A stretch of DNA of 64,000 bases from Candidatus Spongiisociaceae bacterium (GCA_965262915.1 OZ253564.1:2464001-2528000), one strand, 5' to 3'; positions 1,028 to 53,568 are shown, counted from the stretch's first letter. Made by a program: numbers and translations. Notes: generated by a model from the sequence alone, not told the origin.

Positions 1028-2122
1028 CTAGTGTCCTGATTCGGGGATTCGTTGTAGATAGTTGGTGAGGTTGTCGAAGATTTGGTCGGCGGTTTTGTGC
1101 CAGATGAAGGGTTTGGGGTTTTGGTTCCAGTGTTGGGTCCATTGGTTGATGGCGTCGGTGAGTTCGGCTACGGATCGGTGGGTGCCTCGGCGTATCTGTT
1201 TGGTGGTGAGTTCGGAGAACCATCGCTCGACGAGGTTCATCCACGACGCGTAGGTGGGTGTGAAATGGAACGTGAACCGTGGATGGCGTTGCAGCCAGCG
1301 CCCTATGGGTTCGGTTTTGTGGGGCGACGCGTTGTCCAACACGACATGGACGTCGAGTTCTGGTGGGACTTCGCGGTTGATGAGGTTTAGGAACGTCTGG
1401 AATTTGTGGGTGCGGTTGCGTCGTGTCATGGAGGTGATGACCCGGCCGGTGGCCGTGTCGAGCGCGGCCCCGAGGTTGGTGGTGCCGTACCGGCGGTAGT
1501 CGTGGGTGCGCCGCTGGGGGGTTCCGGGCAACAGGGGCAGGATCGGCGCGGTGCGGTCGAGGGCCTGTATCTGGGATTTGTGGTCCACACACAGCACCAC
1601 CGCCGCGTCGGGCGGGTTCAGGTACAAACCCGCCAGGTCGCGGACCTTTTCCACGAACTGGGGGTCGGGAGATATCTTGAAATGCTCGGTCCGGTGCGGC
1701 TTGAGACCGAACGCCCGCCATATTCTTAGGATCGACGACTGGGACAGGCCCACGGCCCTCGCCATGGACCGGGTCGACCAGTGCGTCGCGTCTCTCGGTG
1801 TTTCCTCCAGCGTCTTGACCACCACTTCTTCTACCTTGGCGTCGTCGATGCGGCGGGGCGGCCCGGGGCGGGGATTGTCGTAGAGGCCGTCGAGACGGCG
1901 CCGGGCGAAACGGTTCCGCCACTTCGAGACCGTAACCCCGCTGCAGCCCACCTCCGCTGCGATGTCCACATTGGTGCGGCCTTCGGCCGCTCCCAGCACG
2001 ATACGAGACCGCATCGCTAACCCTTGTGCGGTGCTACGCCGCCGTATCCACCGCTCCAGCGTCTGGCGTTCCTCTTCATCCAGCTCGATAACCACTGCTT
2101 TACGACTCCGCTGCTTCTCCAT
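1028..2122 (-). CDS. IS630-family transposase
   Basis: HTH N-terminus, HWSTRSMA, VVLDNASPHK, FTPTYASWMNLVERWF motifs. Stop codon lies inside the terminal repeat. Confidence 0.95.
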   Translation of the reverse strand: MEKQRSRKAVVIELDEEERQTLERWIRRRSTAQGLAMRSRIVLGAAEGRTNVDIAAEVGCSGVTVSKWRNRFARRRLDGLYDNPRPGPPRRIDDAKVEEVVVKTLEETPRDATHWSTRSMARAVGLSQSSILRIWRAFGLKPHRTEHFKISPDPQFVEKVRDLAGLYLNPPDAAVVLCVDHKSQIQALDRTAPILPLLPGTPQRRTHDYRRYGTTNLGAALDTATGRVITSMTRRNRTHKFQTFLNLINREVPPELDVHVVLDNASPHKTEPIGRWLQRHPRFTFHFTPTYASWMNLVERWFSELTTKQIRRGTHRSVAELTDAINQWTQHWNQNPKPFIWHKTADQIFDNLTNYLQRIPESGH

Positions 2123-2203
2123 ACGCTGCTCCCACTACTGACTGACACTGACCTGCATATTCTAGCAGCATATGGCAAAGAAACTAAGGAATCAGGACAC
2201 TAG
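1028..2203 (-). mobile_element. IS630-family insertion sequence, complete
   Basis: Perfect 15-bp inverted repeats CTAGTGTCCTGATTC (1028-1042) and GAATCAGGACACTAG (2189-2203), CTAG at both ends, enclosing the transposase. Confidence 0.92.
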
Positions 2204-7777: not shown

Positions 7778-7883
7778 CCAGGAGGGTGGTCAAAATCGCC
7801 TCCACTGCCCGTCGGCCGATGACATAATCCCTGGTCAGCGGGCGACGGGCACCAGCACCCGATCATTTGCACCACCCTCCTAA
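7778..7883. mobile_element. MITE family A (IS1182-like ends)
   Basis: CCAG-GAGGGTGGT ... ACCACCCTC-CTAA inverted ends, ~100 bp, no ORF. Confidence 0.75.
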
Positions 7884-7990
7884 TGTCCCGAATCTCAAGT
7901 TCGTTGTGGTGAATACAGCTTCATCGGACTGCCGCGGCCCCGACCGGACCCCGGTCCTCCCTCTCCAGGTAACCGGCTGCCACACAAGGG

Positions 7991-8019
7991 TTGATCCTGT
8001 CACACCCACGTTGTATAAT
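7991..8019 (+). promoter_or_regulatory. Promoter of RNA cassette copy 1
   Basis: TTGATC-17 bp-TATAAT with TGTCAC 10 nt before the -10 box. Same geometry in all six copies. Confidence 0.75.
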
Positions 8020-8024
8020 GTTTG

Positions 8025-8196
8025 ATAGCCGTATACACCACCGGTTCGCTTCCGACGTCAAGCGGACCGGGGCAGGGATCACAATGCTTCGCGCCGACCC
8101 TCCCCGGGGATGGGGGGAGCGCGCTCGGGGACCGATGGAGGTGGCGGCGGGGGCGGGCCCACGGGAGTGGTCCGTTCGGGCGTTTTTCGCGTTCTC
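8025..8196 (+). ncRNA. Unassigned structured RNA motif, copy 1
   Basis: CACC..., hairpin CCGGTTCGCTT/AAGCGGACCGG with GACGTC loop, GGGATCA, GGAGGTGGCGG, GCGTTTTTCGCG. Confidence 0.65.
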
Positions 8197-8286
8197 GTTG
8201 TTGGGGATCGGGTGGGTGGGTTGCTCAGCCTTGCTTCCGGGTATCTGTAGCGATTTCCTGATTCAGGACACCGGACAACTATAGCG

Positions 8287-12211: not shown

Positions 12212-12413
12212 TTGATCCTGTCACACCGATGTCGCACAATGGTAAATAGCCGTAAACACCACCGGTCCGTTGCTGGTACCGATCGGACCGGGGCAGGGAT
12301 CAATCTGTCCGAGCACACCCTCACAGGGGAGGAGAGTTCGCGCTCGGAGCCTCGGAGGTGGCGGTTGGGGAAGGCCCGCGGCAGGGCTACGGCGGGGCGT
12401 TTTTCGCGTTCTC
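12212..12413 (+). ncRNA. RNA cassette copy 2 (promoter plus structured RNA)
   Basis: TTGATC 12212, TGTCAC 12219, CACAAT 12235. AAACACC, CCGGTCCG/CGGACCGG hairpin with GGTACC (12275), GGGATCA, GGAGGTGGCGG, GCGTTTTTCGCG. Confidence 0.65.
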
Positions 12414-24435: not shown

Positions 24436-25638
24436 GTGAACTGCACCCCCCTGTATCTGCATCCGGGCCGGATCGGTTCGCTCATGCTGCCCAACCGTCT
24501 GGTGCGGGCCGCCACCTCCGAGACGATGGCCACGCCGAAGGGCGTCGTGGTGGATTCCTATGTGGAGCTGTACCGCCGGCTCGCCGAAGGAGGAGCGGGT
24601 CTGATCCTCACCGGGCACATGTACGTGGATCCTCGCGGGCAGGCCAGCGCCAAGCAGACCGGCATCCACCACGACGGGCTGATTCCGGCTCTGCGGCGGG
24701 CCACCGACGCGGTACACGACGCCGGCGGGCGGATCTTCGCCCAGATCGGGCACTGCGGCAGCCAGACCAAGGTGTCGGGCGTCACGCCGGTGGCACCGTC
24801 GCCGGTACCCAATGCCATGTACGGCATCCGCCCGGAGGTGTTGACCTCGGCGGATATAGAAGCGCTCGTGCGCGCCTTCGGCGAGGCGGCACGGCGGGCG
24901 GTCGCCGCCGGGTTCGACGGCATCCACATCCACGGTGGAAACGGCTATCTGATCTCGGAGTTCTGCTCGCCGCACGCGAATACCCGCACCGACGGCTGGG
25001 GTGGCGACGCCGAGCGGCGGAGCCGCTTCATGTTCGAGGTGTACGGCGCGGTGCGGGCAGCGGTCGGGGACGGCTTTCCCGTGACCGCTCGCCTCGCCGT
25101 CGAGGACTCGGTGCCCGGCGGGTTGCAGCGGGAGGAGTCGTTGCAGCGGGCCCGGATCCTGGCGGAGCGCGGCATCGACGGCTTCGAGACGACCTACGGC
25201 GTGATGCGCAGCTACCTGGAGAACATCCGTCCGTACGTGGCGGTGCAGCGGGCGCAGGCGTGGCGCAATCTGGTGGTGCAGCGGGCCTGGAAACCCGCCG
25301 GTGCGGAGGCCTACTACCGGCCCTTCGCTCGTGCAGTGAAGCAGGCCACGGGCCTGCCCGTGATCCTCGTGGGCGGCGTCCGCACCACAGACTCGATGAT
25401 CGATATCCTCACCAGCGGCGATGCGGACTTCCTGGCGATGGCCCGCCCGTTCATCCGCGAACCCGATCTGGTACGCAAGCTGGCGGCCGGCCGCACGGGA
25501 GCCATGGCGTGCGTCTCGTGCAACATGTGCCTGGCACACGACGGCTTCGATCCGCTGCGCTGCTGGCGCACCAGCCCTCGCAGCGTCGCCGTGCACATCC
25601 GCAAGCATTACTGGACCAACCGGCGTCGAGGACAATGA
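24436..25638 (+). CDS. NADH:flavin oxidoreductase (Old Yellow Enzyme family)
   Basis: PNRLVRAAT, QIGHCG, AGFDGIHIHGGNGYL, RTDGWGG, CVSCNMC. GGAGG RBS before GTG 24436. Confidence 0.92.
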   Translation: MNCTPLYLHPGRIGSLMLPNRLVRAATSETMATPKGVVVDSYVELYRRLAEGGAGLILTGHMYVDPRGQASAKQTGIHHDGLIPALRRATDAVHDAGGRIFAQIGHCGSQTKVSGVTPVAPSPVPNAMYGIRPEVLTSADIEALVRAFGEAARRAVAAGFDGIHIHGGNGYLISEFCSPHANTRTDGWGGDAERRSRFMFEVYGAVRAAVGDGFPVTARLAVEDSVPGGLQREESLQRARILAERGIDGFETTYGVMRSYLENIRPYVAVQRAQAWRNLVVQRAWKPAGAEAYYRPFARAVKQATGLPVILVGGVRTTDSMIDILTSGDADFLAMARPFIREPDLVRKLAAGRTGAMACVSCNMCLAHDGFDPLRCWRTSPRSVAVHIRKHYWTNRRRGQ

Positions 25639-25658
25639 GCCCTTCAGCACCCTCCCAG

Positions 25659-25950
25659 TGTCCTGATTCCGGGATCAGTCATGGATACTCGGGACGTGCC
25701 GGCGTTGGCACCGGGCAGGCCTTGGGGGACCGAGAACGCGAAAAACGTGGGACCGGATCCCTCCGACGGGCCCACCCCCGACCGCCACCTCCTCGGTTCC
25801 CGAACGCGTCCCGCCATCCCCTGCGAGGGGTCGGCTCCGACAACATGATCCCTGCCCCGGTCCGGTCGGTACCGCAAGACGGACCGGTGGTGTTTACGGC
25901 TACTTACCATTATGCAACGGGACTGTGACACGTCAATCCTCTTGTGGCGG
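25659..25950 (-). ncRNA. RNA cassette copy 3 with retained IS630-type 3' end
   Basis: TTGACG 25936-31, TGTCAC, CATAAT 25914-09. GGTACC loop at 25868, TTTTTCGCG. TGTCCTGATTC at 25659 is identical to the IS630 TIR. Confidence 0.65.
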
Positions 25951-26000
25951 CGAGGCCGGTTCCTGCGGGGGTGCTGTGAGTGGGTTGGCATGCCGGTCCG

Positions 26001-26618
26001 TCAGGCCAGGTGCTCGATCAGCCGGTCCAACACGGTCGGTAGGTTCCGGAGAAAGAAGTCGTCTGCCTGGGCAGTTCTGCATCTCGATTCAACAAGTGAC
26101 CAGTCGATACGATCCTGCGCTGCGATTGCTAGGGCCACTGCTTCGTCCCAGGTCACAGGCGTTCCATCGGTTGCCTGCACGAGACGATCCACCATCAGGT
26201 CGTTGACCGAGATGACCCGGACCACCACACCTCCGACCTCGATTTGCTTGGGTGGGTCCTCCCCGAACAGCGTCTCGGCCGGCACCTCTATAGCGATCTC
26301 CTCATCGCCGGTGCCGCAGACCCAATGCCGCCCGTCGCGGACAAACCCCAGCCGAGCCAGCACTGCCTTGTCTCGGGAGTCGACAGGGCCGACCATGTCG
26401 ATGTCCGTCATTCGCTGACGGCCGGTGTGGATCATCTGAGCCGCGCCACCGACCAGCACGAGCGGCGCCCGTACAGCAGTGTCGAAAGCAGCAACTGCTA
26501 GGAGGACCCGCTCAGCACTGTCCGGCGACGCCCGCAGTGCCAAGGCGATCAGTTCGGAAGCTCTCAACCCAGAAGCCGCCGCTCGACCGTAGTATCGATG
26601 CCGCGGGCCTGTTTCCAC
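26001..26618 (-). CDS. Putative nucleotidyltransferase-fold protein
   Basis: VLVGGAA...RMTDIDMV motif. Start uncertain. Confidence 0.6.
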   Translation of the reverse strand: METGPRHRYYGRAAASGLRASELIALALRASPDSAERVLLAVAAFDTAVRAPLVLVGGAAQMIHTGRQRMTDIDMVGPVDSRDKAVLARLGFVRDGRHWVCGTGDEEIAIEVPAETLFGEDPPKQIEVGGVVVRVISVNDLMVDRLVQATDGTPVTWDEAVALAIAAQDRIDWSLVESRCRTAQADDFFLRNLPTVLDRLIEHLA

Positions 26619-26902
26619 ACCATCCGCTGCTCGACATCACGCGCCGGAATGCCGCGTTCGGCCAACCGTCGGGCACCCTCGGCCATCCGAGCCTTTACGT
26701 CGGCCAGTGTGAGAGGAGCAGGAGCCGAGAGCACCAACTCCACCCCCAACGCACATGCTATCCGAGCCAGCGTGGAGTACCTGGCATCCACCTTCCCTGC
26801 TTCGATACGGGACAGGTTCGGTTGAGCGATGCCCGTCATGGCCGACAACTGGGAAAGCGTTATCCCCTTGTCTAACCGGATCTCTCGCAACTGCCGATAC
26901 AT
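26564..26902 (-). CDS. XRE HTH regulator
   Basis: LREIRLDKGITLSQLSAMTGIAQPNLSRIEAG. Confidence 0.85.
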   Translation of the reverse strand: MYRQLREIRLDKGITLSQLSAMTGIAQPNLSRIEAGKVDARYSTLARIACALGVELVLSAPAPLTLADVKARMAEGARRLAERGIPARDVEQRMVWKQARGIDTTVERRLLG

Positions 26903-27230
26903 GCTCACCTCAATATAGTTAATGTGATATGCGAGCGGGAAAATCGCGGGCACGCAGCTAACGCCCGGCCCGTAGCCTATGACCGCGTCCGGCCTGCCTC
27001 CGGAGTGCCCCGATCGGTGATCGATACGGGGCCTACTGGCTGGGACGATGGTCGGTAACGCCACTCTGTATGCTCCGCTGTTGCCATCGTTGGGGGCGAA
27101 GTGAGGGTGCCGGGTTCGAAGTGCGTATTCGCTCGAGTCGCGAAGACCCACCAGGGTCCGGAGATCCTATCCCTCTGCGTGGCTCCGACTACGGCTGTAT
27201 TGTCTGGCCGAGAGTCAAGGAGGGTGACTG

Positions 27231-28928
27231 ATGGCGGAGACGGCTTTTCTTCCTGCCGGTATCGACGTTCGCAACAACGTGAGGGTGCCGATGCGTGACG
27301 GGGTCGAGCTCTCCATCGACATCTACTTCCCGGCCAAGGGCGGAGGACCGTTCCCGGTGATCCTGGCGCGGACACCGTACGACAACATGTCGGAGGGCTT
27401 GGTCGATTCCGCCATCTTCTTCGCCCAGAACGGCTATGCCTTCGCCGCCCAGGACTGCCGCGGGCGCAACGACTCGGACGGCCGCTTCAACCCGTGGGTC
27501 CAGGAGTTCGAGGACGGGCACGACACGGTCGAGTGGCTCGGCTCGCAGGTCTGGTGCGACGGGAACATCGGCATGCACGGCGACTCGTACGTGGGCGGTG
27601 TGCAGTGGATGGCGGCCGTCATGGGCAGCCCGTATCTGAAGGCGATCGTTCCCCGGGTCATCGGTGACGACCTCCACAATTCGCCGCACTACCAGAGTGG
27701 GGCGTTCACGTTGCACCTCAACGCCACTTGGAGCTACCGCATGGGGGGACGCACCTGGCAGCTGATCGACCGGTTCAACTGGAAGCGCATTTTCCCGGTG
27801 CTGCCGCTGCGGGCCATACCGGCGTTCGGCGGCAAGGACGTTCACTTCTTTCAGGACTGGTTGGACCATCCCGACTACGACGACTACTGGAAGCCCCTGG
27901 CGATCAAGGAACAGTACGAGAAGGTGAGGATTCCGGTGCTGCAGATCGGCGGCTGGTACGACATCTTCGCCGGTGGGACGATGAACAACTTCGTCGGGAT
28001 GCAGCAGCGGGGCGGCTCCGAGCTAGCTCGCAACCACCAGCGGGTCGTCATGGGGCCGTGGCACCACCACACCAACACCGAGACCCACGCGGGGGAGATC
28101 GACTTCGGCAAGGCCTCGGTGCTGGATGTCAACGAGATCCAACTGCGGTGGTACGACCACTGGCTGAAGGGCGAGGACAACGGGGTCGATGCGGATCCGC
28201 CATTGCGTATCTACACGATGGGCACCGACGAGTGGCGCGACGAGCACGAGTGGCCGCTAGCTCGGACCGAGTTCACTCCCTGGTACTTCCACAGCGACGG
28301 GTCGGCCAACTCCCTCCTGGGCGACGGAGCCCTGTCCACCGAGTCGTGCACCGACGAGCCGGCCGACGGATACGTCTACAACCCCGGGTACCCGACCCCC
28401 ACCATGGGCGGGACCACCTGCTGCAATCCCGAGATCGTCGACTGGGGCTCCTTCGACCAACGACCGGTCGAGTACCGCAACGATGTCCTCGTGTACACGT
28501 CGCAGCCGCTCGAAGAGGATCTCGAGGTCACCGGGCCGGTGGTTGTCAAGCTGTTCGCCGGCACCGACGGGAAGGATACGGACTTCACCGCGAAGCTCGT
28601 CGATGTCCATCCGGACGGGTTCGCCAGGAACCTCTGCGACGGCATCATCCGCGGCCGGTACCGGGAGGGCGCCGAGCGCCAGGTGTTGCTGGAGCCGGAT
28701 GAGGTCTACGAGTTCACGATCGATCTTTGGGTCACCAGCAACGTGTTCAGGAGGGGACACAGCATCAGGGTGGAGATCGCGAGCAGCAACTTCCCCCGCT
28801 TCGACCGCAACCTCAACACGGGCAACCCGATTGCCGACGACGACCAGATCCGGGTTGCCCGCCAGACCGTCCACCACGACACGACCCGGCCCTCCCACAT
28901 AGTGCTGCCGGTGATACCTCCTGGTTGA
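27231..28928 (+). CDS. CocE/NonD family hydrolase
   Basis: MRDGVEL, RTPY, QDCRGR, GDSYVG, GGWYD, GPWHH, SSNFPRFDRN. Confidence 0.95.
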   Translation: MAETAFLPAGIDVRNNVRVPMRDGVELSIDIYFPAKGGGPFPVILARTPYDNMSEGLVDSAIFFAQNGYAFAAQDCRGRNDSDGRFNPWVQEFEDGHDTVEWLGSQVWCDGNIGMHGDSYVGGVQWMAAVMGSPYLKAIVPRVIGDDLHNSPHYQSGAFTLHLNATWSYRMGGRTWQLIDRFNWKRIFPVLPLRAIPAFGGKDVHFFQDWLDHPDYDDYWKPLAIKEQYEKVRIPVLQIGGWYDIFAGGTMNNFVGMQQRGGSELARNHQRVVMGPWHHHTNTETHAGEIDFGKASVLDVNEIQLRWYDHWLKGEDNGVDADPPLRIYTMGTDEWRDEHEWPLARTEFTPWYFHSDGSANSLLGDGALSTESCTDEPADGYVYNPGYPTPTMGGTTCCNPEIVDWGSFDQRPVEYRNDVLVYTSQPLEEDLEVTGPVVVKLFAGTDGKDTDFTAKLVDVHPDGFARNLCDGIIRGRYREGAERQVLLEPDEVYEFTIDLWVTSNVFRRGHSIRVEIASSNFPRFDRNLNTGNPIADDDQIRVARQTVHHDTTRPSHIVLPVIPPG

Positions 28929-29108
28929 GGCCGAGCTCTTCGCTCAAGAACCGTTATCAGTTGCCGGTAGTCAGTGGTGCGACCGGGCAACAGGACCAGG
29001 TCTTGAGGGTCCTTTGCGCTGGTCGGTGGCCAACCAAGGCCACCGTGCACCCAGACCGTGGCTGAGGGTCTCTACCGTTGGGCCCACTACGCGGCCAGTG
29101 TCTTGTGG

Positions 29109-30383
29109 TCAGTTGCCCTGATCGAGGACCGTTGTCCAGAGCCGGTCGATGGGCATCGCATGGATGCGGTCCTCAGGATGGCTGTTCCATTCTCCGGTGT
29201 GGAACGCTACGCCGGCTTTGAAGCGGTCTCCGAGTTCGTCGCGCAGGGTTCGCAGGCCGCGCCCGCTTCGAGGCTGCCAGCCTCCTGCTGCTTTGATCTC
29301 GAACGCCAATACGGAACCGTCGGACTGTTCCACGACCAGGTCGACTTCAAGGCCTCCTCTGGTTCGCCAGTGCCCGACTGTGGGTGTGTGGTCCATCCAC
29401 GACACTTGCTTGAGAATCTCACCTACGGTGAACGTCTCGAGCAGATGACCGAACTGCTGCAGGGCCGTCCCGTCCCGTCTCGCTAGCCGATCCTCTGAGA
29501 GGCCGAGGAGTCGTGCCGCTAGTCCGGAGTCGACGATGTGAAGCTTGGGGTGTTTGGTCGCTCGGGCGCGCAGAGTGGTTCGCCAGGCCGGTAGACGGCT
29601 GATAAGGAAGGAGGACTCGAGGAGGCCCGTGTAGGTGTGGGCTGTCTTTTGTTTGAGTCCCGCGGCGTCTCCTGCAGACGTAACATTCAGTACTTGGCCG
29701 GTCTGGGAAGCGAGCCGGTGGAACATCCGGCGCAGTCCAGCCGGGTCGCGTACATTGGACAGTTCGTCGCGTATTTGTTCGAGGCATAATTCGACATAGT
29801 TGTCGTACCATCGTTGCCGGCCGGCTGTGCTCATCGGCCGCGTTGGAGGGAAACCGCCTTGAACCACCCGCTGTACGTACTGTTCGCGGGCCGTAGCGGA
29901 TCGGTATCCGTCGTGCAGGGATTCGGGGTCGGTGAAGAGCCTGTCGACCAGGTTCTCGCGGACGGATGCAGCTTCTCCTTGAGAAAACGGGTAGAGGGGC
30001 AGCCGGTAGAGCCTGCCTGTGAGGAACCGTGACAGATCGGGCCGTACGGTGTCGCTTACCGTCGACCCCGTGAGGACGAACTGGCCGGGCGATCCGTCCT
30101 GGTTGAGTTGGTTCTTGATGGCGGCTAGCAGTCCGGGAACGTGCTGGTACTCGTCGATTAGCACGGGACGGGGTCCTGTGACGAGGATTCGGGGGTCCAG
30201 TCGGGCGAAGGTGCGTGTGGCAGGATCGTCGAGGTCGATCATCTCCACCGAAAACGACGCGGCAAGGGAGCGGAGGAGCGTGGTCTTCCCAACGGACCGG
30301 GGTCCTTGAACCAACACCACCGGGATCTCTTCCATCCGGAGACGGACTATCCCCTCGAGTTGTCGAGCAACCGTTGCCGTCAC
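29109..30383 (-). CDS. AAA_14 ATP-binding protein with DUF4143 C-terminus
   Basis: QGPRSVGKT, LIDEYQ, FVLTGS, GGFP, KLHIVDSG, WRTRGGLEVDLV..FEIK. Confidence 0.92.
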   Translation of the reverse strand: MTATVARQLEGIVRLRMEEIPVVLVQGPRSVGKTTLLRSLAASFSVEMIDLDDPATRTFARLDPRILVTGPRPVLIDEYQHVPGLLAAIKNQLNQDGSPGQFVLTGSTVSDTVRPDLSRFLTGRLYRLPLYPFSQGEAASVRENLVDRLFTDPESLHDGYRSATAREQYVQRVVQGGFPPTRPMSTAGRQRWYDNYVELCLEQIRDELSNVRDPAGLRRMFHRLASQTGQVLNVTSAGDAAGLKQKTAHTYTGLLESSFLISRLPAWRTTLRARATKHPKLHIVDSGLAARLLGLSEDRLARRDGTALQQFGHLLETFTVGEILKQVSWMDHTPTVGHWRTRGGLEVDLVVEQSDGSVLAFEIKAAGGWQPRSGRGLRTLRDELGDRFKAGVAFHTGEWNSHPEDRIHAMPIDRLWTTVLDQGN

Positions 30384-30423
30384 CTCGGGGTCCTTGCCTC
30401 TCGTCAGCTACCGGGTGTCTAAG

Positions 30424-30505
30424 TTACACGATTGGCCAACTGTTTATTACAGCATTGGCCTATTGGTTGTTACTAGATCGACATGCCTGATCTGCCGAAT
30501 TGGCC
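30424..30505. repeat. Degenerate 23-bp-period repeats upstream of the DUF4143 ATPase
   Basis: TTACACGATTGGCC (30424), TTACAGCATTGGCC (30447), TTACTAGATCGACA (30470), ATTGGCC (30499). Confidence 0.6.
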
Positions 30506-30671
30506 TGAACTGCCCACCCGCGGCAAGCCGTGGTCGTAGCTGGGTTGGGGGCGCAGGAATCCGGATGCCCCGCACAATTCGAGGACCGCTGCGGGCATTG
30601 TCGCTAGCCTGAGCTACGGCCTCGATCGGAACCGATCCACTGGCGGCCACATAATCTATTGGGAGGTTCAC

Positions 30672-32117
30672 ATGCGTCCGACTGTTGCCGACCTTCCTTG
30701 GAGTCAGTTGCCGGAACCTCTGACGAGGAGACTGGCCGACTGGGCATACGACCTTTCTTACGCGGATCTAGGCCAAGAAGAGCGCGAGGCGGTGGTGCGC
30801 CTGTGCCGGGACTTCGTGGTGATATCGCTGGCTGCCTCGACCGGTCGGGGCGTGGGCGAGTCGTCGGGCCCCGGCCTGGAGCCCTTGGTGAAGCTGGCCG
30901 CTCTCTATCCCGGTTCGTGCACCATCCTCGGACGGGATGTGACCACCACGCCCCAGCATGCGGCCATAGTGAACGGCGCCTTTGCCCACACCCTCAACCT
31001 GATGGACGTGCATCGGTGGAGCGCTCCAACCCATATCTGTCCCGGGGTCTTTCCGGCGGTCTTTGCCCTGGCGGAGACCAGGGAGGTTGCCTTCCCCGAG
31101 TTCGCGGTGGCGGTGGTGGTGGGCGTGGAGGGGATAGCCAAGCTGGGTATGGCGCTCAACGTCGGCCAGGGGGTGATCGACACCACCGACGCCAACGCTC
31201 CCGGAGCGGCGCTGGCGGGCGCCAAGTTGCTCGGCCTGGACCGGGACGGGCATGCCGATGCGTTGGGGATCGGTGCCTACCTGGCGGTGGGCGGCACCAT
31301 CTCGCTCGAGTTGACCTCTCCCGGGTACTGGACCAGGCCGCTGCTCAGCGGTTGGCAACCCGGTACCGGCGTGATCTCCGCCATGCTGGCCCGGGAGGGG
31401 CTGCGGGGGTCCCCTCGGGTGCTGGAGGCCGCCACGGGCTTCCTGAACGCGCGGAGCCTGGTTCCCGACCCCGCTCCCCTGTCGGCGCTCGGCGACCCGT
31501 TCGAGGTCACGCGGGTGGGTCTGAAGCCTTACCCGACCACCAGGTACATCCACTCGGAGATCGAGGCCCTGCTGCGCATCGTCGTGGAGGAGGATCTGGC
31601 CCCTGACGACGTGGAGAGGGTCGTGATCGAGAAACCGCGGTCCATGCACCTGGTCACTGGAACGGATGACCGCCTCGATCCGTCCGCCCCAGAGGTGGCC
31701 CGCCTCAGCTCGTTCTTCTTCGCCGCCAAGGTCATCAAGGATCGCCGGGCCTGGCTGGATGCCCTCGAACCCGCCTCGCTTCATGACGCCGAGACGAAGC
31801 AACTCATGGACCGGGTCGAGTGTCGACCGGCTGCGGATCTGGATGCCTTCTTCCCGGAGGGATTGCCGGCGAGGGTGACGGTGGAGAAACGGGACGGGAC
31901 TTCGGTTACCAGGACGATCCACCACCCGCGGGGTGAGCCGGAGCGGCCGCTGTCCGAGGCCGAGCTCATGGCCAAGTACAACGCCTTGTACGACTACTGC
32001 CTCTCGGACTCGATGCCGAGGGCTCGTTTCGACGAGATCCTGGCCCGGTGCTCCGAGTTGGAGAGTTGCGAGGACATCGGGGCCTTCGTCGGTTCTCTCG
32101 GCGCCGATGCGTCCTGA
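30672..32117 (+). CDS. MmgE/PrpD family protein
   Basis: AAIVNGAFAH, KPYPTTRYIH, HPRGEPERPLS. Confidence 0.88.
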   Translation: MRPTVADLPWSQLPEPLTRRLADWAYDLSYADLGQEEREAVVRLCRDFVVISLAASTGRGVGESSGPGLEPLVKLAALYPGSCTILGRDVTTTPQHAAIVNGAFAHTLNLMDVHRWSAPTHICPGVFPAVFALAETREVAFPEFAVAVVVGVEGIAKLGMALNVGQGVIDTTDANAPGAALAGAKLLGLDRDGHADALGIGAYLAVGGTISLELTSPGYWTRPLLSGWQPGTGVISAMLAREGLRGSPRVLEAATGFLNARSLVPDPAPLSALGDPFEVTRVGLKPYPTTRYIHSEIEALLRIVVEEDLAPDDVERVVIEKPRSMHLVTGTDDRLDPSAPEVARLSSFFFAAKVIKDRRAWLDALEPASLHDAETKQLMDRVECRPAADLDAFFPEGLPARVTVEKRDGTSVTRTIHHPRGEPERPLSEAELMAKYNALYDYCLSDSMPRARFDEILARCSELESCEDIGAFVGSLGADAS

Positions 32118-32164
32118 TCCGCAAGTCCGGTAGTCCTCCGGATACCTGAGAAAGGAAGCGTGAC

Positions 32165-32584
32165 ATGTCCCTCCCCGCCGCCGACAAGGTCGAGATCCAC
32201 GAACTGGTAGCCCGATACAACCGGGCTATCGACTCGGGCGATGTGGAGGGCTGGGTGGATACCTTCCTCCCGGACGGGGTGTTCGAGGGTCTGGTGGTCC
32301 CCACCTTCCGGGGCCACGACGAGTTACGGGCCTTCGCCACCGAATTCTGGACCGAACCCGAGTACGCCGAGTGGCGGGGCGCCCAGCACTGGACCACCAA
32401 CATGATCATCGATGGCGAGGGTGACCGAGCCACCCTGTTCGCCTACCACATAATGTTCACGCCCCACGGTCCGGGTGCCAACCCTGCCCTGCTGGCCGCC
32501 TACGACGACGAACTTCGCAAAGTGGATGGCCGGTGGCGCTTCTCCCGGCGCCGCGTGATCGAGTTCCCCGGCGACGTGGCCTGA
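32165..32584 (+). CDS. SnoaL-like / NTF2 family protein
   Basis: DKVEIHELVARYNRAIDSGD..W...F.PDG, YDDELRKVDGRWRF. Confidence 0.88.
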   Translation: MSLPAADKVEIHELVARYNRAIDSGDVEGWVDTFLPDGVFEGLVVPTFRGHDELRAFATEFWTEPEYAEWRGAQHWTTNMIIDGEGDRATLFAYHIMFTPHGPGANPALLAAYDDELRKVDGRWRFSRRRVIEFPGDVA

Positions 32585-32769
32585 CCCGCAGAGTCAGCCT
32601 GCCTAGCGCTGTGAAGGGTGGGCGCCGGTCCCGTGGGCTGCATGCGCCGGGAGGTGGTGAGTTTCGGCCGATGATCAGAGCCCGGTAGACCAGGAGCCGG
32701 CCATTGGCGAAGGAATGGCTGATTGACGCCGCACTCCACGCTTGCGGGTAATCGCCGAATCCCGCGTCA

Positions 32770-32974
32770 GGTCGCGAAAAACGCGACCGCCGGCTTGTCC
32801 TCCGGGCCCTCCCCCGCCACCACCGTTCCTGAGTTCCGAGCGCGTTCTGCCCGCACCTGGGGGGCTGTCCGGCACCTAGATTCGTGATCCCTCGGGCGGT
32901 CGAAATGACGTCCGGTTCGAGACCGCCGGGTGTTTGACACCAACCAATATGCCACAGGGTTGTGACAGGTTCAA
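32770..32974 (-). ncRNA. RNA cassette copy 4
   Basis: TTGAAC 32974-69, TGTCAC, CATATT. AAACACC, GACGTC loop (32907), GGGATCA, GGTGGTGGCG, GGTCGCG-TTTTT-CGCGACC. Confidence 0.6.
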
Positions 32975-33038
32975 CCCTCTCGAGCGGGCAAGTTCCTCCC
33001 CGGATGGGCTTCCGGCCACCCGAGAGCCGTGTGGCGGG

Positions 33039-34088
33039 TCAGTCGCCCAGGGAGTCGACGATGTGCATGATCCCGTCTCTGGCCATGGGGTTGGGCAGGT
33101 AGCTGCTGAAACCGGGGTAGAGCGGGAAGATGATCGGCAGGGTGATGCCGGCCGCCCGGTACACGTCGATCTTCTCCCGGCACATCTCCGGCGTTCCGTA
33201 GACGGTCACCGCGTCGGCCATCTCGTCGTCGATCAGGTCCACGGCGGCCTCCATGTCCCCCGCCTCGACCCGTTCGGTCACTTGGCGGGCGATCTCTCCC
33301 TTGCCGCGGCGGTTGAAGTAGGTGCGGTAGTAGTGGTACGAGGACATGTGGATGGCCACGTCGTGCTTGGCCGCCAGCTTGGCGGCCTCCACGTCCTCGC
33401 TGACCGAGGTCGGCAGGTAGCACCCGAGCTCGATCTCGGCCGGATCCCGACCTACCCGGGCCGCTCCCCTGGCCACAGCCTCCTTCATGACCGGCACGAA
33501 GTCGAGCGGCACGAAGATCGGCGCCACCCCGTCGGCGATCTCGCCGGCCAACTCGAAGGTCTTCTCGGCCAGCGCACCGTAGAAGATCTCGATGTTGTCG
33601 CGGTACGGTCCCAGCCACGGCTCGTAGTCGCGGACGTGGAAGACCTCACCCCGGTAGCGGACCGGCTCGCCCTGGTAGGCGCCCTTGATGACGGCGCGGG
33701 TCAACTCGGTGGTCTCGCGCAGCCTCTGCAGCGGCCGCTCGAAGGGGGAAGGCCGGTTGATCTCCACGTCGTCGCGCATCAGGTGGATCTCGCGATGGCC
33801 GACCCCCAGGCCCAGGCGGAACCGGCCCTCGGAGATGGAGTCGACGGTGGCGGCGGCGATGGCGATGGTGGTCGGGTTGCGGGTGAACACCGTCGCCACG
33901 CCGGTGCCCAGGATTATCTGCTCGGTCTCGCGGGCGCATGCGGCCAGGAAACAGAACGGGTCCGAGAAGCTCTCGATTATGTAGGCGGACTCGTAGCCGC
34001 GCCGGTCGGCCAGCTTGACCACGTCGATGAGATCGTTGATCGGCATGCCTCCCCAGAGGCCGAGCCCGAGCCTGTCCATGTGAAACAC
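33039..34088 (-). CDS. LLM-class flavin/F420-dependent oxidoreductase
   Basis: LGTGV...RNP..IA..AATVD.ISEGRFRLGLG, ELAGEIADG. Confidence 0.92.
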   Translation of the reverse strand: MFHMDRLGLGLWGGMPINDLIDVVKLADRRGYESAYIIESFSDPFCFLAACARETEQIILGTGVATVFTRNPTTIAIAAATVDSISEGRFRLGLGVGHREIHLMRDDVEINRPSPFERPLQRLRETTELTRAVIKGAYQGEPVRYRGEVFHVRDYEPWLGPYRDNIEIFYGALAEKTFELAGEIADGVAPIFVPLDFVPVMKEAVARGAARVGRDPAEIELGCYLPTSVSEDVEAAKLAAKHDVAIHMSSYHYYRTYFNRRGKGEIARQVTERVEAGDMEAAVDLIDDEMADAVTVYGTPEMCREKIDVYRAAGITLPIIFPLYPGFSSYLPNPMARDGIMHIVDSLGD

Positions 34089-34177
34089 CCGCCTTTCTGT
34101 CGTCGCTGTCGTCGTCCCTCAGACCATGCGCTGGTGGGCGAGCATCGAGCTCGCGAGAAATACGCTACGCAAAGGGG

Positions 34178-34385
34178 TTGACCTTGTCACACCCGTGCCG
34201 CACAATAGGTGATACCAAACACCGGTGCGGCATCGAACCGGACGTCCTTCGGCCGCCCGCGGGATCATCAAGCTCGGAACCAGGTCGGCATCACCGAAGG
34301 CAGCGGCAGGACGCGTTCCGACCCCAGGAAAGGTGGTGGTGGGGGTGGGCCCGCCGGAGGGTCGGCGGGGGCGATTTTCGCGACC
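34178..34385 (+). ncRNA. RNA cassette copy 5
   Basis: TTGACC 34178, TGTCAC 34185, CACAAT 34201. AAACACC, GACGTC loop (34241), GGGATCA, GGTGGTGGTG, GCGATTTTCGCGACC. Confidence 0.6.
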
Positions 34386-34458
34386 TGGGGGCGTGGATCC
34401 AGCTTGGCCGGGCACCCGGTCGACGTGGTCGACTGCACCTTGGCCGGGGGTGCGGTGA

Positions 34459-35466
34459 TCACGTCCCATCCGCTGTGCCAGGCGTCTGCGCCCGATCCGT
34501 TACGAGGTTCCTCGGGCGGGTGGAACGGGCCAGCAGCCGGGTGTCGGCGGCGAACTCCCCGGACCGGATGCACGACACCGAGTGCTTGTCGCCGTAGTCC
34601 TCCTCGGGAGGTTCCGCCTCCGAACAGGCGGCGATCGACCATGGGCAGCGGGGCTCCAGCGGGCATCCGGGGGGTCGCTCCATCGGGCTGGGGATCTCAC
34701 CGATGAGCTCCACCGGGGCCATCGGGACGGTCGGGTCCAATTCGAGAGCCGACTGCATCAGCGCCCGGGTGTAGGGGTGCAACGGGTCGACGAACAGCCG
34801 GTCGGTCGGGCCCCGCTCGACGATCTTTCCCAAGTACATGATGGCGACCCGCTCGGTGACCGACCGGATGGCGAGCAGGTCGTGGCTGATCAGCAGGATG
34901 GCGGTGGACGAGCTTCCCCGGAGCCGCTTGATCAGCTCCAGCACCCCGGCCCGGGCGTCGGGATCCAGCGCGGTGGTGGGCTCGTCGAGGATCAGCAGGT
35001 CGGGTTCGAGGATCAGGGCCCGGGCTATCGAGGCCCGCTGCAGCAGTTCCTCGGGGAGGCCGTCGCAGTTCAGCAGCAGGTGGGTGCGGTCGAGTCCGAC
35101 CAGGGCGGCCGCCTCCTCCACCCGGGTCGCCAACTCGGCACCTCTCCGGACACCGTGGGCGAGCAGCGGATCGGCGATCGCCTCCCACACCTGGAAACGC
35201 CGGTTTACCGAGTCGCGCGGCTCCTGGAACACCATCCCGACCTGCGCATCGTCCGTGCCCCAGGTGATGGTCCCGCCGTCTGGCGCCAGCAGCCCGGCCA
35301 GGCACCGTCCCACCGTGCTCTTGCCGGAGCCACTCTCGCCGATCAGCCCCAGCACCTCGCCCCGGTCGATCCGGAAGGAGGCTTCCGCCACGGCCACCAG
35401 CCGGTCCCCACCCTCGAGGCGGAAGACCTTGCGCAGCCGCTCGACGGTCACCACCCGGCTCATCAC
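34459..35466 (-). CDS. Peptide/nickel ABC transporter ATP-binding protein
   Basis: GESGSGKS, ILDEPTTALD, HPYTRAL, GCPLEPRC. Confidence 0.9.
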   Translation of the reverse strand: MMSRVVTVERLRKVFRLEGGDRLVAVAEASFRIDRGEVLGLIGESGSGKSTVGRCLAGLLAPDGGTITWGTDDAQVGMVFQEPRDSVNRRFQVWEAIADPLLAHGVRRGAELATRVEEAAALVGLDRTHLLLNCDGLPEELLQRASIARALILEPDLLILDEPTTALDPDARAGVLELIKRLRGSSSTAILLISHDLLAIRSVTERVAIMYLGKIVERGPTDRLFVDPLHPYTRALMQSALELDPTVPMAPVELIGEIPSPMERPPGCPLEPRCPWSIAACSEAEPPEEDYGDKHSVSCIRSGEFAADTRLLARSTRPRNLVTDRAQTPGTADGT

Positions 35467-51802: not shown

Positions 51803-53568
51803 GAGGGTGCTGAGCAATCCGTCTGAAGGGGTGCTGCTTGAACCCTGGGATGTGCTGTTGGCTGGTGTGGGTTGGTGGGAGGCTGCCGGTTGGGGGGTGG
51901 TGGTGCTGGTTGTCGGGGTGGAGTTGCCCCGGTTTTTGGGGTTGCCGGTGGGTTTGGTGGTTTAGGTGGGGTTGAGTGCCCAGCCGGTGGTTGTGTGGGT
52001 GAGTCCGAGGTTGATGAGGCGTTGTAGGTTGATGGCTGCTGTTGGGGTGGTGAGCCATTGCTGGTTGGGTTTGATTCCTCGGTGTGGGACACGTCTGGGG
52101 TTGCGGCGGGTGAGCCAGGCGATGGTCCGCTCGACGGACGGCCGGTGGTTCCGGTAGGTGTCCTGCGTTTCTTCTTTGGCCCACCGTGCTTTGTTCGCGG
52201 CGCGACGGTCGTGGTGTTTGTCGACTGCGATGGTCCGTCCACGCTTGGAGGTGGTGCATCGTGCCCGCAGGGGGCAGCCGTTGCACCGCTTGGCGAACGG
52301 GGCGGTACCACCGGGGCGTATGCGGGTGGTGTGCCCGGCGGGACACGTCACCGTCCGGGCTCCGGTGTCGACCTCGAAGTCGTCGCGGTGATAGCCGTCT
52401 TCGATGTGGGGTTTGCGTACGATTGGTTTGGTCACCGGGGTGTGACCAAGATCGTCGAACGTTTCAAGCGCCGCACCGGACGCGTACGCGGAGTCGGCGA
52501 CGATTTCGGCACCCGGGGGTGCTTCGGCAACGAGATCCGCAATGCTGTCGGCGTCTGGGGTGTTGGCAGCGGTTAGGTGGGCGGCGGTGACCAGCCCGGT
52601 TTCGGGTTCGGTAGTCACATGGGCCTTGTACCCGTCCCGTTTGCGGGTCCGGGTCTTGTGACCGTGCCTGGCTTCGGGGTCCACCGTCGATATGGTCCGA
52701 TCTCGGGCCACACGCCGCGCTATCCGCCATCGGCCTTCCCGGTGGGGATCCGGTTCCACATCTTGGCCCGTAACCACTCCCAACAGACCTATTGCGTCGG
52801 CCTGTTCGGGGTTCAGCTTTATGTCCTCCACCCCTTCGATCAGCGCCAGCCCGTCGGTGACCAAACCGTTGATCAGTTCCGATCGGCTGTCGGGATCGGA
52901 CCAGTCACAGGACGGTTTCGCCTTCGATTCGTAGTCATGGGCCACCAGCACCAGGTCGGCTGCCTGCGGGATCAGACGTCGGCAACGCCTTATCTGCGAC
53001 GAGATCATCGTCACCGTGTCCCCGGTAGCAACCGCGTCGTGCAGAATGGTCGAGTCCAACGCACGGCGTCCCCTGTTCGCCAACACCCCACAGGCGGCGA
53101 CCACCTCCCGCACCGCGTCGAAGATACGCTCAGGACGGTCACTCGCCCTAAGCCTCGCTCGCCACAACGTCAGCACCGTCGGGTGGAACCCCCCATCGGT
53201 CAACGACAGACCAGCCGCCGCTTTCCAAGCTATGTCACGACGCAGCCGCTGGACCGCTTCCCGATCCGACAGGCCCTCCAACGCCTGGAGGACCATCACC
53301 GCCCCAATCACCGAGCCCGGTATCGACGGGCGGCCCCGCGGGCCGAACAAATCCCCAAACATCTCAGCGGGAAACAGACGCCGGCGGTGCTCAGCCAAAA
53401 ACTGATACACCGAACCCTCCGGAACCAACTCCCCACACAGTTCCATAGCGTCCAGAAACTCACGATCACCACGTTCACTACCCTGCATACCACCTACAAT
53501 AATCCCAACAAACCCAAAACGCGAACAAGCCAACACCCAACAGACCGACTAAATCAGCAGTCCCCTAG
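51799..53568 (-). mobile_element. IS1182-family insertion sequence
   Basis: CTAG-GAGGGTGCTGA ... TCAGCAGTCCC-CTAG imperfect inverted ends with CTAG duplicated. Inserted at the sulfatase stop codon. Confidence 0.8.
51962..53488 (-). CDS. IS1182-family transposase
   Basis: GRPSIP, LSDREA, LDST, STVDPEARHGHK, GYKAH, ADSAY, CPAG, C.GCPLR..C, RPSVER. Confidence 0.9.
   Translation of the reverse strand: MQGSERGDREFLDAMELCGELVPEGSVYQFLAEHRRRLFPAEMFGDLFGPRGRPSIPGSVIGAVMVLQALEGLSDREAVQRLRRDIAWKAAAGLSLTDGGFHPTVLTLWRARLRASDRPERIFDAVREVVAACGVLANRGRRALDSTILHDAVATGDTVTMISSQIRRCRRLIPQAADLVLVAHDYESKAKPSCDWSDPDSRSELINGLVTDGLALIEGVEDIKLNPEQADAIGLLGVVTGQDVEPDPHREGRWRIARRVARDRTISTVDPEARHGHKTRTRKRDGYKAHVTTEPETGLVTAAHLTAANTPDADSIADLVAEAPPGAEIVADSAYASGAALETFDDLGHTPVTKPIVRKPHIEDGYHRDDFEVDTGARTVTCPAGHTTRIRPGGTAPFAKRCNGCPLRARCTTSKRGRTIAVDKHHDRRAANKARWAKEETQDTYRNHRPSVERTIAWLTRRNPRRVPHRGIKPNQQWLTTPTAAINLQRLINLGLTHTTTGWALNPT

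Follow-up and report, generated by a model that had tools for sequence, protein, structure and literature searches.

A multicopy cassette predicted to encode a small, possibly dimerising structured RNA in Candidatus Spongiisociaceae, carried in part by an IS630-type MITE

Six copies of a promoter-RNA cassette and an IS630-family element

The window analysed here is the whole stretch of 64,000 nt from the genome of a Candidatus Spongiisociaceae bacterium (OZ253564.1, 2464001–2528000). It contains six copies of one cassette, in which a promoter precedes a predicted RNA of some 160 nt, together with an autonomous insertion element that we take to be a member of the IS630 family from its DDE_3 and HTH domains and from the general traits of that family. 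Elements of the IS630/Tc1-mariner group encode a DDE_3 transposase with an N-terminal HTH, measure about 1.1–1.2 kb and insert at TA, often within CTAG. Some of the cassettes lie within, or beside the remains of, a miniature inverted-repeat element (MITE) with ends of the IS630 type. The features are as follows.

1031–2200, minus strand: autonomous IS630-family element of 1170 bp, with a 364-aa DDE_3 + HTH transposase (ORF 1028–2122)
7880–8271, no strand assigned: IS630-type MITE of about 392 bp round copy 1, with a degenerate left end CTAATGTCCCGAATC (7880–7894) and a right end GATTCAGGACAC (8260–8271)
7991–8019, plus strand: promoter of copy 1, with -35 box TTGATC (7991–7996), a 17-nt spacer that includes TGTCACA, and -10 box TATAAT (8014–8019)
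8027–8188, plus strand: predicted RNA of copy 1, about 162 nt, its start placed from the -10 box
8027–8188, plus strand: parts of the copy 1 RNA, in order P1, P2 (GACGUC loop), P3 (GGGAUCA loop), P4, G-run, hairpin and U5
12212–12405, plus strand: copy 2, with promoter 12212–12240, predicted RNA 12248–12405 and GGUACC loop; a bare cassette without MITE arms
25658–25669, no strand assigned: MITE end GTGTCCTGATTC, terminator side of copy 3; promoter-side end missing
25740–25936, minus strand: copy 3, with promoter 25936–25909 (16-nt spacer), predicted RNA 25901–25740 and GGUACC loop
32776–32974, minus strand: copy 4, of the subfamily without conserved flanks, with promoter 32974–32946, predicted RNA 32938–32776 and GACGUC loop
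34178–34379, plus strand: copy 5, of the subfamily without conserved flanks, with promoter 34178–34206, predicted RNA 34214–34379 and GACGUC loop
53754–53946, minus strand: copy 6, with promoter 53946–53918, predicted RNA 53910–53754 and GGUACC loop
54044–54055, no strand assigned: MITE end GATTCGGGACAC, promoter side of copy 6; opposite end degenerate

A sequence-only reading of this DNA had described six diverged copies with a common order of motifs. The six do show the motifs in the order described and can be aligned end to end, with a mean column identity of 76% and 79 invariant columns, and an nhmmer search seeded with them retrieved exactly these six from the window. All of them had also been placed between genes; a crude GC3-based gene caller agrees, except for a doubtful ORF over copy 1. 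Additionally, no Rfam 15 family matched anywhere in the window at gathering score (the best E-value round copy 1 was 0.64, and round copies 4 and 5 there were no matches up to E = 5), in line with the earlier statement that the RNA could be assigned to no known family.

Size, age and distribution of the family

A genome-wide nhmmer search of the single 5.05-Mb contig gave 63 matches, with E-values down to 1e-52, of which 56 are near-full copies. The family first seen as six copies is therefore real in its six members but far larger, with 56 in this genome and many in relatives. Pairwise identity among the 56 own copies ranges from 0.46 to 0.99 and has a median of 0.58, a divergence that marks these RNA gene copies as old. 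Four variants outside the window (at 215376, 603896, 759397 and 3025226 of contig G000:C1) have a central domain larger by about 60 nt; the loop of their first hairpin contains the palindrome UCCGGA, with GAUCA directly after it.

The covariance model R1, whose construction is described below, was searched over 150 genomes of the order, comprising 18 others of the window's own family and 132 from 11 sister families. It found the RNA in 14 of the 18 (4/4 in genus g1, 8/9 in g7, 2/3 in g4 and 0/2 in g3), most of which are multicopy too, and in none of the 132 genomes of the sister families. Weak BLAST matches in two other families (E = 6e-5 and 9e-4) were discarded, as R1 gave no confirmation of them. 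The pattern of the most conserved 3′ part occurs in more than 114 stretches of public genomes; among the matches listed are metagenome-assembled genomes (MAGs) labelled Acidimicrobiia, Ca. Spongiisocius, Ca. Spongiisociaceae or plain "bacterium". A profile run on those public loci gave at least 131 matches, at least 107 of them full length and including the promoter. Plasmid and phage collections contained no similar DNA.

Copy 5 and two copies from elsewhere in the genome (e01 and e09), all of them flank-less, are syntenic in three congeneric genomes, and several foreign copies have 300 bp of flank on both sides in common with copies in other MAGs, as orthologues would. The site of copy 4 is empty in the congeneric genome G002, with neither clean ends nor a target duplication in the comparison of filled and empty site, and copies in genome G004 and in genus g7 occupy sites that are empty in this genome. 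The RNA family is old within one family of Acidimicrobiia, where it is kept in many copies; a sponge habitat is suggested for these bacteria by their names only.

A conserved promoter with a candidate operator

Every unit carries a G-run, a TTGAC-like -35 box, a 17-nt spacer with TGTCACA and a CATAAT-like -10 box. The -35 box, the spacer of 16–17 nt and the -10 box are at the same place in all six window copies, the spacer being of 16 nt only in copy 3, and the second A and last T of the -10 box are kept in 54 of the 56 own copies. The heptamer TGTCACA is conserved, per base, in 86–98% of own and 74–96% of foreign copies, which exceeds the conservation of the -35 box, here as well as in the other MAGs. 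It forms a TGT-N-ACA palindrome between the -35 and -10 boxes (e.g., 7998–8004 in copy 1), and suggests itself as a candidate operator through which a single regulator might act on all copies. The likely start is a purine 7–8 nt past the -10 box, which is also the first base of P1.

Scanning positions 25000–35000 of the window with a consensus promoter gave only two sites, which coincide with the promoters of copies 3 and 5; shuffled sequences would give 1.1 ± 1.1, and copy 4 fell below the cut-off of the scan. Judging from these motifs, the unit has its own sigma-70-like promoter at a fixed distance from the predicted RNA. Among the RNA runs on record, none was listed as containing positions 25000–34999, and contigs from two runs guessed to be RNA were scattered and of low depth, on genes and cassette alike.

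Predicted fold and covariation

The comparative model was built by eye on many copies, then turned into a seed alignment and from this into R1. In the model, the 5′ end of the RNA is paired with the distal GGUGGYGG (P1a and P1b); the hairpin P2 comprises about 10 bp, a bulge and a loop of about 10 nt; P3 is a short stem capped by GGGAUCA; and the hairpin P4, long and irregular, has a bulged base and the motif ACGCG in its 3′ strand. P4 is followed by a linker, the run GGGGGNGGGCCC, a hairpin and four to five U residues, a run that occurs in all copies. The minimum free energy (MFE) fold of copy 1 coincides with this model. Of the 56 own copies R1 matched 51, missing the four large-insert variants and one further copy (e40); it was built from one subfamily and places the structure poorly on the other, as seen in the three syntenic pairs compared.

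In the alignment of the 51 own copies, which was fitted to the model so that its counts lean towards it, 82.7% of cells were paired versus 73.2 ± 0.6 after shuffling (0 of 500 shuffles as high), a control that overstates significance because the copies are kin. Sliding the partners by 1–3 columns reduced pairing to 28–49%, and two-sided changes occurred in 30 of the 41 pairs versus 19.1 ± 2.0 in shuffles. A second alignment, also fitted to the model, comprised 98 R1 matches from 100 loci of other MAGs; its 94 distinct sequences had 76.1% of cells paired, versus 68.0 ± 0.4 after shuffling and 35–49% after sliding. Most of the signal is in P1 and P2 (93–98% and 85–92% paired, respectively, in the foreign alignment), as exemplified by a P1 pair that reads AU 28, GC 24, GU 10 and UG 9 in the foreign sequences. 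P4a and P4b were 65–85% paired, with clear AU/GC exchanges. For P3 the range was 58–85%, and an alignment-free test found a stem of at least four pairs in 51% of copies versus 33% of shuffles. The terminator helices were 60–69% paired as aligned, with a mean z-score of -0.7 for the last 40 nt, and a consensus terminator scan caught one of the three copies in its 10-kb stretch (25000–35000). Covariation support is strong for P1 and P2 and weak for P3, P4 and the terminator.

Both the pairing of the 5′ segment with the distal segment, with compensatory changes, and the hairpin stem that is altered yet stays paired had been proposed on the six window copies, and they hold on the 51 own and 94 foreign distinct sequences. 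The broader claim of an RNA under structural selection stands firmly for P1 and P2 and less so for P3, P4 and the terminator, and folding energies are not lower than those of shuffles, with z-scores of +0.21 for copy 1, +1.42 for copy 5 and a mean of +0.41 over the 56 copies. From the model-fitted alignment, RNAalifold recovered no more than P1b and P2; on plain MAFFT alignments, RNAalifold and averaged pair probabilities gave little past P1, P2 and the terminator, the subfamilies differing in register, and the output of a naive all-pairs scan and of mutual information was dominated by columns rich in G-U and by shifts from one subfamily to another. Two further elements were dropped from the model: a pseudoknot of the GGGAUC loop with GAUCCC further downstream, which exists in one subfamily only, and P5, a mini-hairpin after P4 without conservation.

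Within P1 and P2, G-U pairs outnumber A-C mismatches about 2.7-fold (43 vs. 16 in own copies, 136 vs. 48 in foreign copies), an excess that fits an RNA read from the promoter strand. Altogether, we regard it as likely that the unit is a real structured RNA family.

A self-complementary loop that switches between palindromes

The loop of P2 contains a hexamer that is self-complementary by Watson-Crick pairing in 42 of the 51 copies from this genome and in 74 of the 86 from other MAGs, and in 49 of 51 and 83 of 86, respectively, when G-U pairs are allowed, versus 11–16% (31–39% with G-U) of shuffled P2 loops. The sequence itself varies, including GACGUC, GGUACC, GGCGCC, GCGCGC, CGAUCG and UCCGGA, and the variants GGCGUC and GAUGUC are self-complementary as RNA only. 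The strongest base-pairing mutual information in the alignments is that of the two inner hexamer pairs, the neighbouring central bases reading CG in 109 sequences and UA in 33. These central bases covary and yet are neighbours that cannot pair inside one hairpin, which makes a second molecule the partner to be expected. Intermolecular kissing loops of the large RNAs OLE and GOLLD have been argued from the same switching of a loop from palindrome to palindrome (PMC12286853, in part); for example, the core of the OLE loop L9.3 switches from GGCC to GAUC or AGCU, according to that part of the paper. Such switching would be the signature of a symmetric kissing-loop dimer, and we give even odds to a dimerisation of this RNA through the P2 loop.

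Relationship to an IS630-family element

In part of one subfamily the cassette is framed by common arms, of about 110 bp on the upstream and about 75 bp on the downstream side, which end in inverted repeats GTGTCCTGAKTC with CTA...TAG flanks and make up a unit of 387–393 bp. The autonomous element has the same CTA...TAG flanks, and its ends of about 33 bp match those of the RNA-bearing MITE. These terminal 33 bp, with 79–91% identity, are all that the two have in common; their insides are unrelated, and the autonomous element contains no RNA cassette. The genome has 12 intact copies of the latter that are 99–100% identical, which point to a recent burst. By its ends, the cassette-bearing unit is an IS630-family MITE in 19 of the 56 own copies, which carry one or both such ends at a constant distance (both in 9), whereas 37 have none; likewise, one or both ends were found in 20 of 107 foreign copies and none in the other 87. 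Within the window, one or both ends are preserved at copies 1, 3 and 6 and neither at copies 2, 4 and 5. Conservation of the copies without arms ends exactly at the promoter and at the U-run. An IS630-like transposase was found in four of seven genomes of the window's genus and in none of 12 genomes of g7 or three of g4, genera in which the RNA is present.

The initial reading held that copies 2, 4 and 5 had lost their transposon ends. For copies 4 and 5 the direction was probably the reverse: they belong to the older, flank-less subfamily and copy 5 is syntenic, so that capture of one sublineage by a MITE is most likely. The presence of multiple RNA copies where no IS630-like transposase was found also makes capture likelier than loss of ends. 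Loss is possible for copy 2, because its sequence is of the MITE-borne type and its flanks are bare. The simplest and most likely history is that an old family of RNA genes slowly gained and lost copies, and that a MITE captured one of its branches, which was then amplified in this lineage.

A second short repeat of about 105 bp, with ends GGAGGGTG...CACCCTCC, occurs at about 7780–7882 of the window and beside many MITE copies elsewhere in the genome; it borders directly on the RNA-bearing MITE, at CTAG/CTAA and in some cases on either side of it, and looks nested or inserted side by side at the same target. Downstream of copy 6, a gene for a 524-aa DDE transposase (DUF772, DDE_Tnp_1, DDE_Tnp_1_6; 51962–53536, minus strand) belongs to an element different from the IS630-like one, and related copies lie near two other cassettes.

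The cassette could be no more than the inside of a non-autonomous transposon, a selfish DNA repeat whose recent spread and DNA-level constraints would account for its conservation while the RNA is functionless. Such a repeat is consistent with the transposon ends of the 19 own copies, with the dozen near-identical transposase copies, with the filled and empty sites noted above (copy 4 against G002; copies of G004 and g7 against this genome) and with folding energies that carry no thermodynamic signal. We consider it unlikely, given that 37 of 56 own and 87 of 107 foreign copies lack any such end, that the RNA is multicopy in g7 (8/9 genomes), where the transposase was found in 0 of 12, and that the arm-less copies are conserved up to, and not beyond, the promoter and the U-run. 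Moreover, copies as old as these, with their median identity of 0.58, keep the invariant bases of the -10 box, compensated stems and a loop that remains palindromic while its sequence changes, and both the G-U excess and the loops GGCGUC and GAUGUC speak for pairing at the RNA level.

Partner genes and neighbouring genes

An RNA carried by a mobile element might instead serve that element, as an antisense regulator, guide or cofactor of its transposase or of another enzyme. We find this quite doubtful. It would suit the copies that are cargo of the IS630-type MITE, and copies of the MITE-borne type have 17–18 nt complementary, with two mismatches, to the transposase mRNA (RNA bases about 36–53); however, 12 of 200 shuffles equalled this complementarity, which is thus probably due to chance, and most copies of the other subfamily lack it. 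Further, the transposase was found in none of the 12 g7 and three g4 genomes, from genera that bear the RNA, and the autonomous element comes without the cassette. The search for mobile enzymes covered IS630-like transposases, reverse transcriptases and TnpB. It gave no match to the reverse transcriptase domain (PF00078) in the genome, which is 96.4% complete, and two TnpB-like ORFs, none of them adjacent to a cassette. A retron msr-msd or other retroelement RNA was rejected on the first count, and a TnpB/IscB omega RNA on the second, with two TnpB-like ORFs against 56 RNA copies and the nearest about 5 kb from a copy (e08).

Clustering of the four nearest genes of all copies revealed no recurrent family either, the largest cluster having 7 members out of about 220. 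A promoter, a structured RNA and a terminator-like hairpin are the usual layout of a leader that acts in cis on the downstream gene, as riboswitches and attenuators do. For this unit such a role is very improbable, because 18 of 56 copies have the downstream gene on their own strand and 38 have it on the other, according to crude GC3-based gene calls that also show no common downstream family.

The unit is non-coding. Among 124 copies, the distances between two invariant motifs fall about equally into the three residue classes modulo 3 (43, 41 and 40) and the best frame is open in 79, which bears out the earlier remark that no ORF is conserved among the copies.

Some observations concern the placement of the copies. 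Copies 4 and 5 diverge round a gene for a luciferase-like monooxygenase (33039–34088, minus strand), and a congener has copy 5 only. The GC skew places the origin of replication near 5.04 Mb and the terminus near 2.87 Mb; with the direction of replication so inferred, 38 of 56 copies are transcribed against it (binomial p = 0.010), a bias that may arise because copies tend to be directed towards the 3′ end of the gene that follows.

Proposed mechanism and its meaning

The reading that we favour, with a probability of roughly 0.6, is that of a stand-alone, promoter-driven RNA of about 160 nt that pairs with a second copy through its P2 loop and acts in trans. A sigma-70-type promoter would drive the RNA from each stand-alone unit, and its first bases would pair with the distal GGUGGYGG to form P1, closing a junction of the three hairpins P2 to P4. 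Since the P2 loop presents a self-complementary hexamer, two such RNAs would most likely join by a symmetric kissing loop, and the dimer might then act in trans as a scaffold or as a binder of partners, not on the neighbouring gene. We infer from the sequence that the RNA is transcribed, where it starts and ends, that it dimerises and that it acts in trans.

The motifs GGGA and GGA are found at single-stranded positions of the model, in the P3 loop, the internal loop of P4, the linker and the 3′ G-run. They could point to binding of a protein or of a C/U-rich RNA, a speculation to which we attach little probability at most. A wider reading, rather unlikely in our estimation, joins several of these features. 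According to it, these would be abundant, lineage-specific RNAs in which P2 dimers and a further contact through the GAUC of the P3 loop lead to chains or rings; they would be expressed from dozens of paralogues with their own promoters and a shared TGTCACA operator, and would spread as transposon cargo, the functional unit of such uncultivated symbionts being the RNA assembly and not the pairing with a target.

To our knowledge, almost nothing is known of the RNA biology of these uncultivated Acidimicrobiia. If the cassette is expressed, it represents an undescribed family of structured RNAs with hundreds of diverged natural variants in few genomes, and such rich comparative data make the fold, the loop-loop contact and the promoter operator directly testable. 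If the favoured reading is true, the recent finding of RNA-only homo-oligomers, made on a few giant bacterial RNAs, would be extended to an RNA that is small and highly multicopy, and a bacterial DNA transposon would be able to capture and amplify a whole RNA gene. Should the wider reading of joint assembly hold as well, this MITE would be the first in bacteria to spread an entire gene for a structured RNA, and could be likened to a SINE that is DNA-borne.

Comparison with known systems

The RNA is a member of no described RNA family, resembling kissing-loop RNAs in its predicted workings and MITE cargo in the way it travels. Our search of full texts outside subscription journals, without supplementary files, retrieved no paper on the RNA, on Spongiisocius or on non-coding RNAs of sponge Acidimicrobiia.

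CsrB/RsmZ sponges have repeated GGA motifs, and in Y RNAs the paired 5′ and 3′ ends close a body of several hairpins. The RNA described here is like the former in repeating GGA/GGGA in a loop and in single-stranded parts, and like the latter in its paired ends closing a multi-hairpin body. It differs from them in that no gene for the respective partner was found, as there was no match to CsrA (PF02599) or to Ro60/TROVE (PF05731) in the 96.4%-complete genome.

The closest parallel to the P2 loop is in OLE, GOLLD and ROOL, whose variants, as part of one paper describes them, also switch a self-complementary loop core between palindromes (PMC12286853). Pairing of such loop cores within one chain is sterically impossible, as argued in the same part of that paper. 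The cassette RNA has no sequence or Rfam match to these three and is of about 160 nt versus 600–800 nt; it has dozens of individually promoted copies per genome, and its oligomerisation is predicted from sequence alone.

Prokaryotic MITEs that carry RNAs or promoters include the source of the Coxiella QMITE-derived RNAs Cbsr3, Cbsr13 and Cbsr16 and the Correia elements, with their promoters (PMC10969869, in part). The RNA-bearing unit is similar to MITEs with small RNAs, as far as that part of the source describes them, in being a short non-autonomous transposon with terminal inverted repeats, a sigma-70-like promoter and a small RNA (PMC10969869). The known MITE-derived small RNAs and promoters arise from the element itself, according to the same part of the source (PMC10969869), whereas the cargo here is not a by-product of inverted repeats but a complete predicted gene with promoter, structured RNA and terminator-like hairpin; additionally, copies free of MITE arms make up the majority and occur in the genera in which no transposase was found. 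As in IS630-family MITEs, the ends and the CTA...TAG flanks of the unit are those of a larger element, here of 1170 bp; unlike in them, what lies inside this MITE is an RNA gene.
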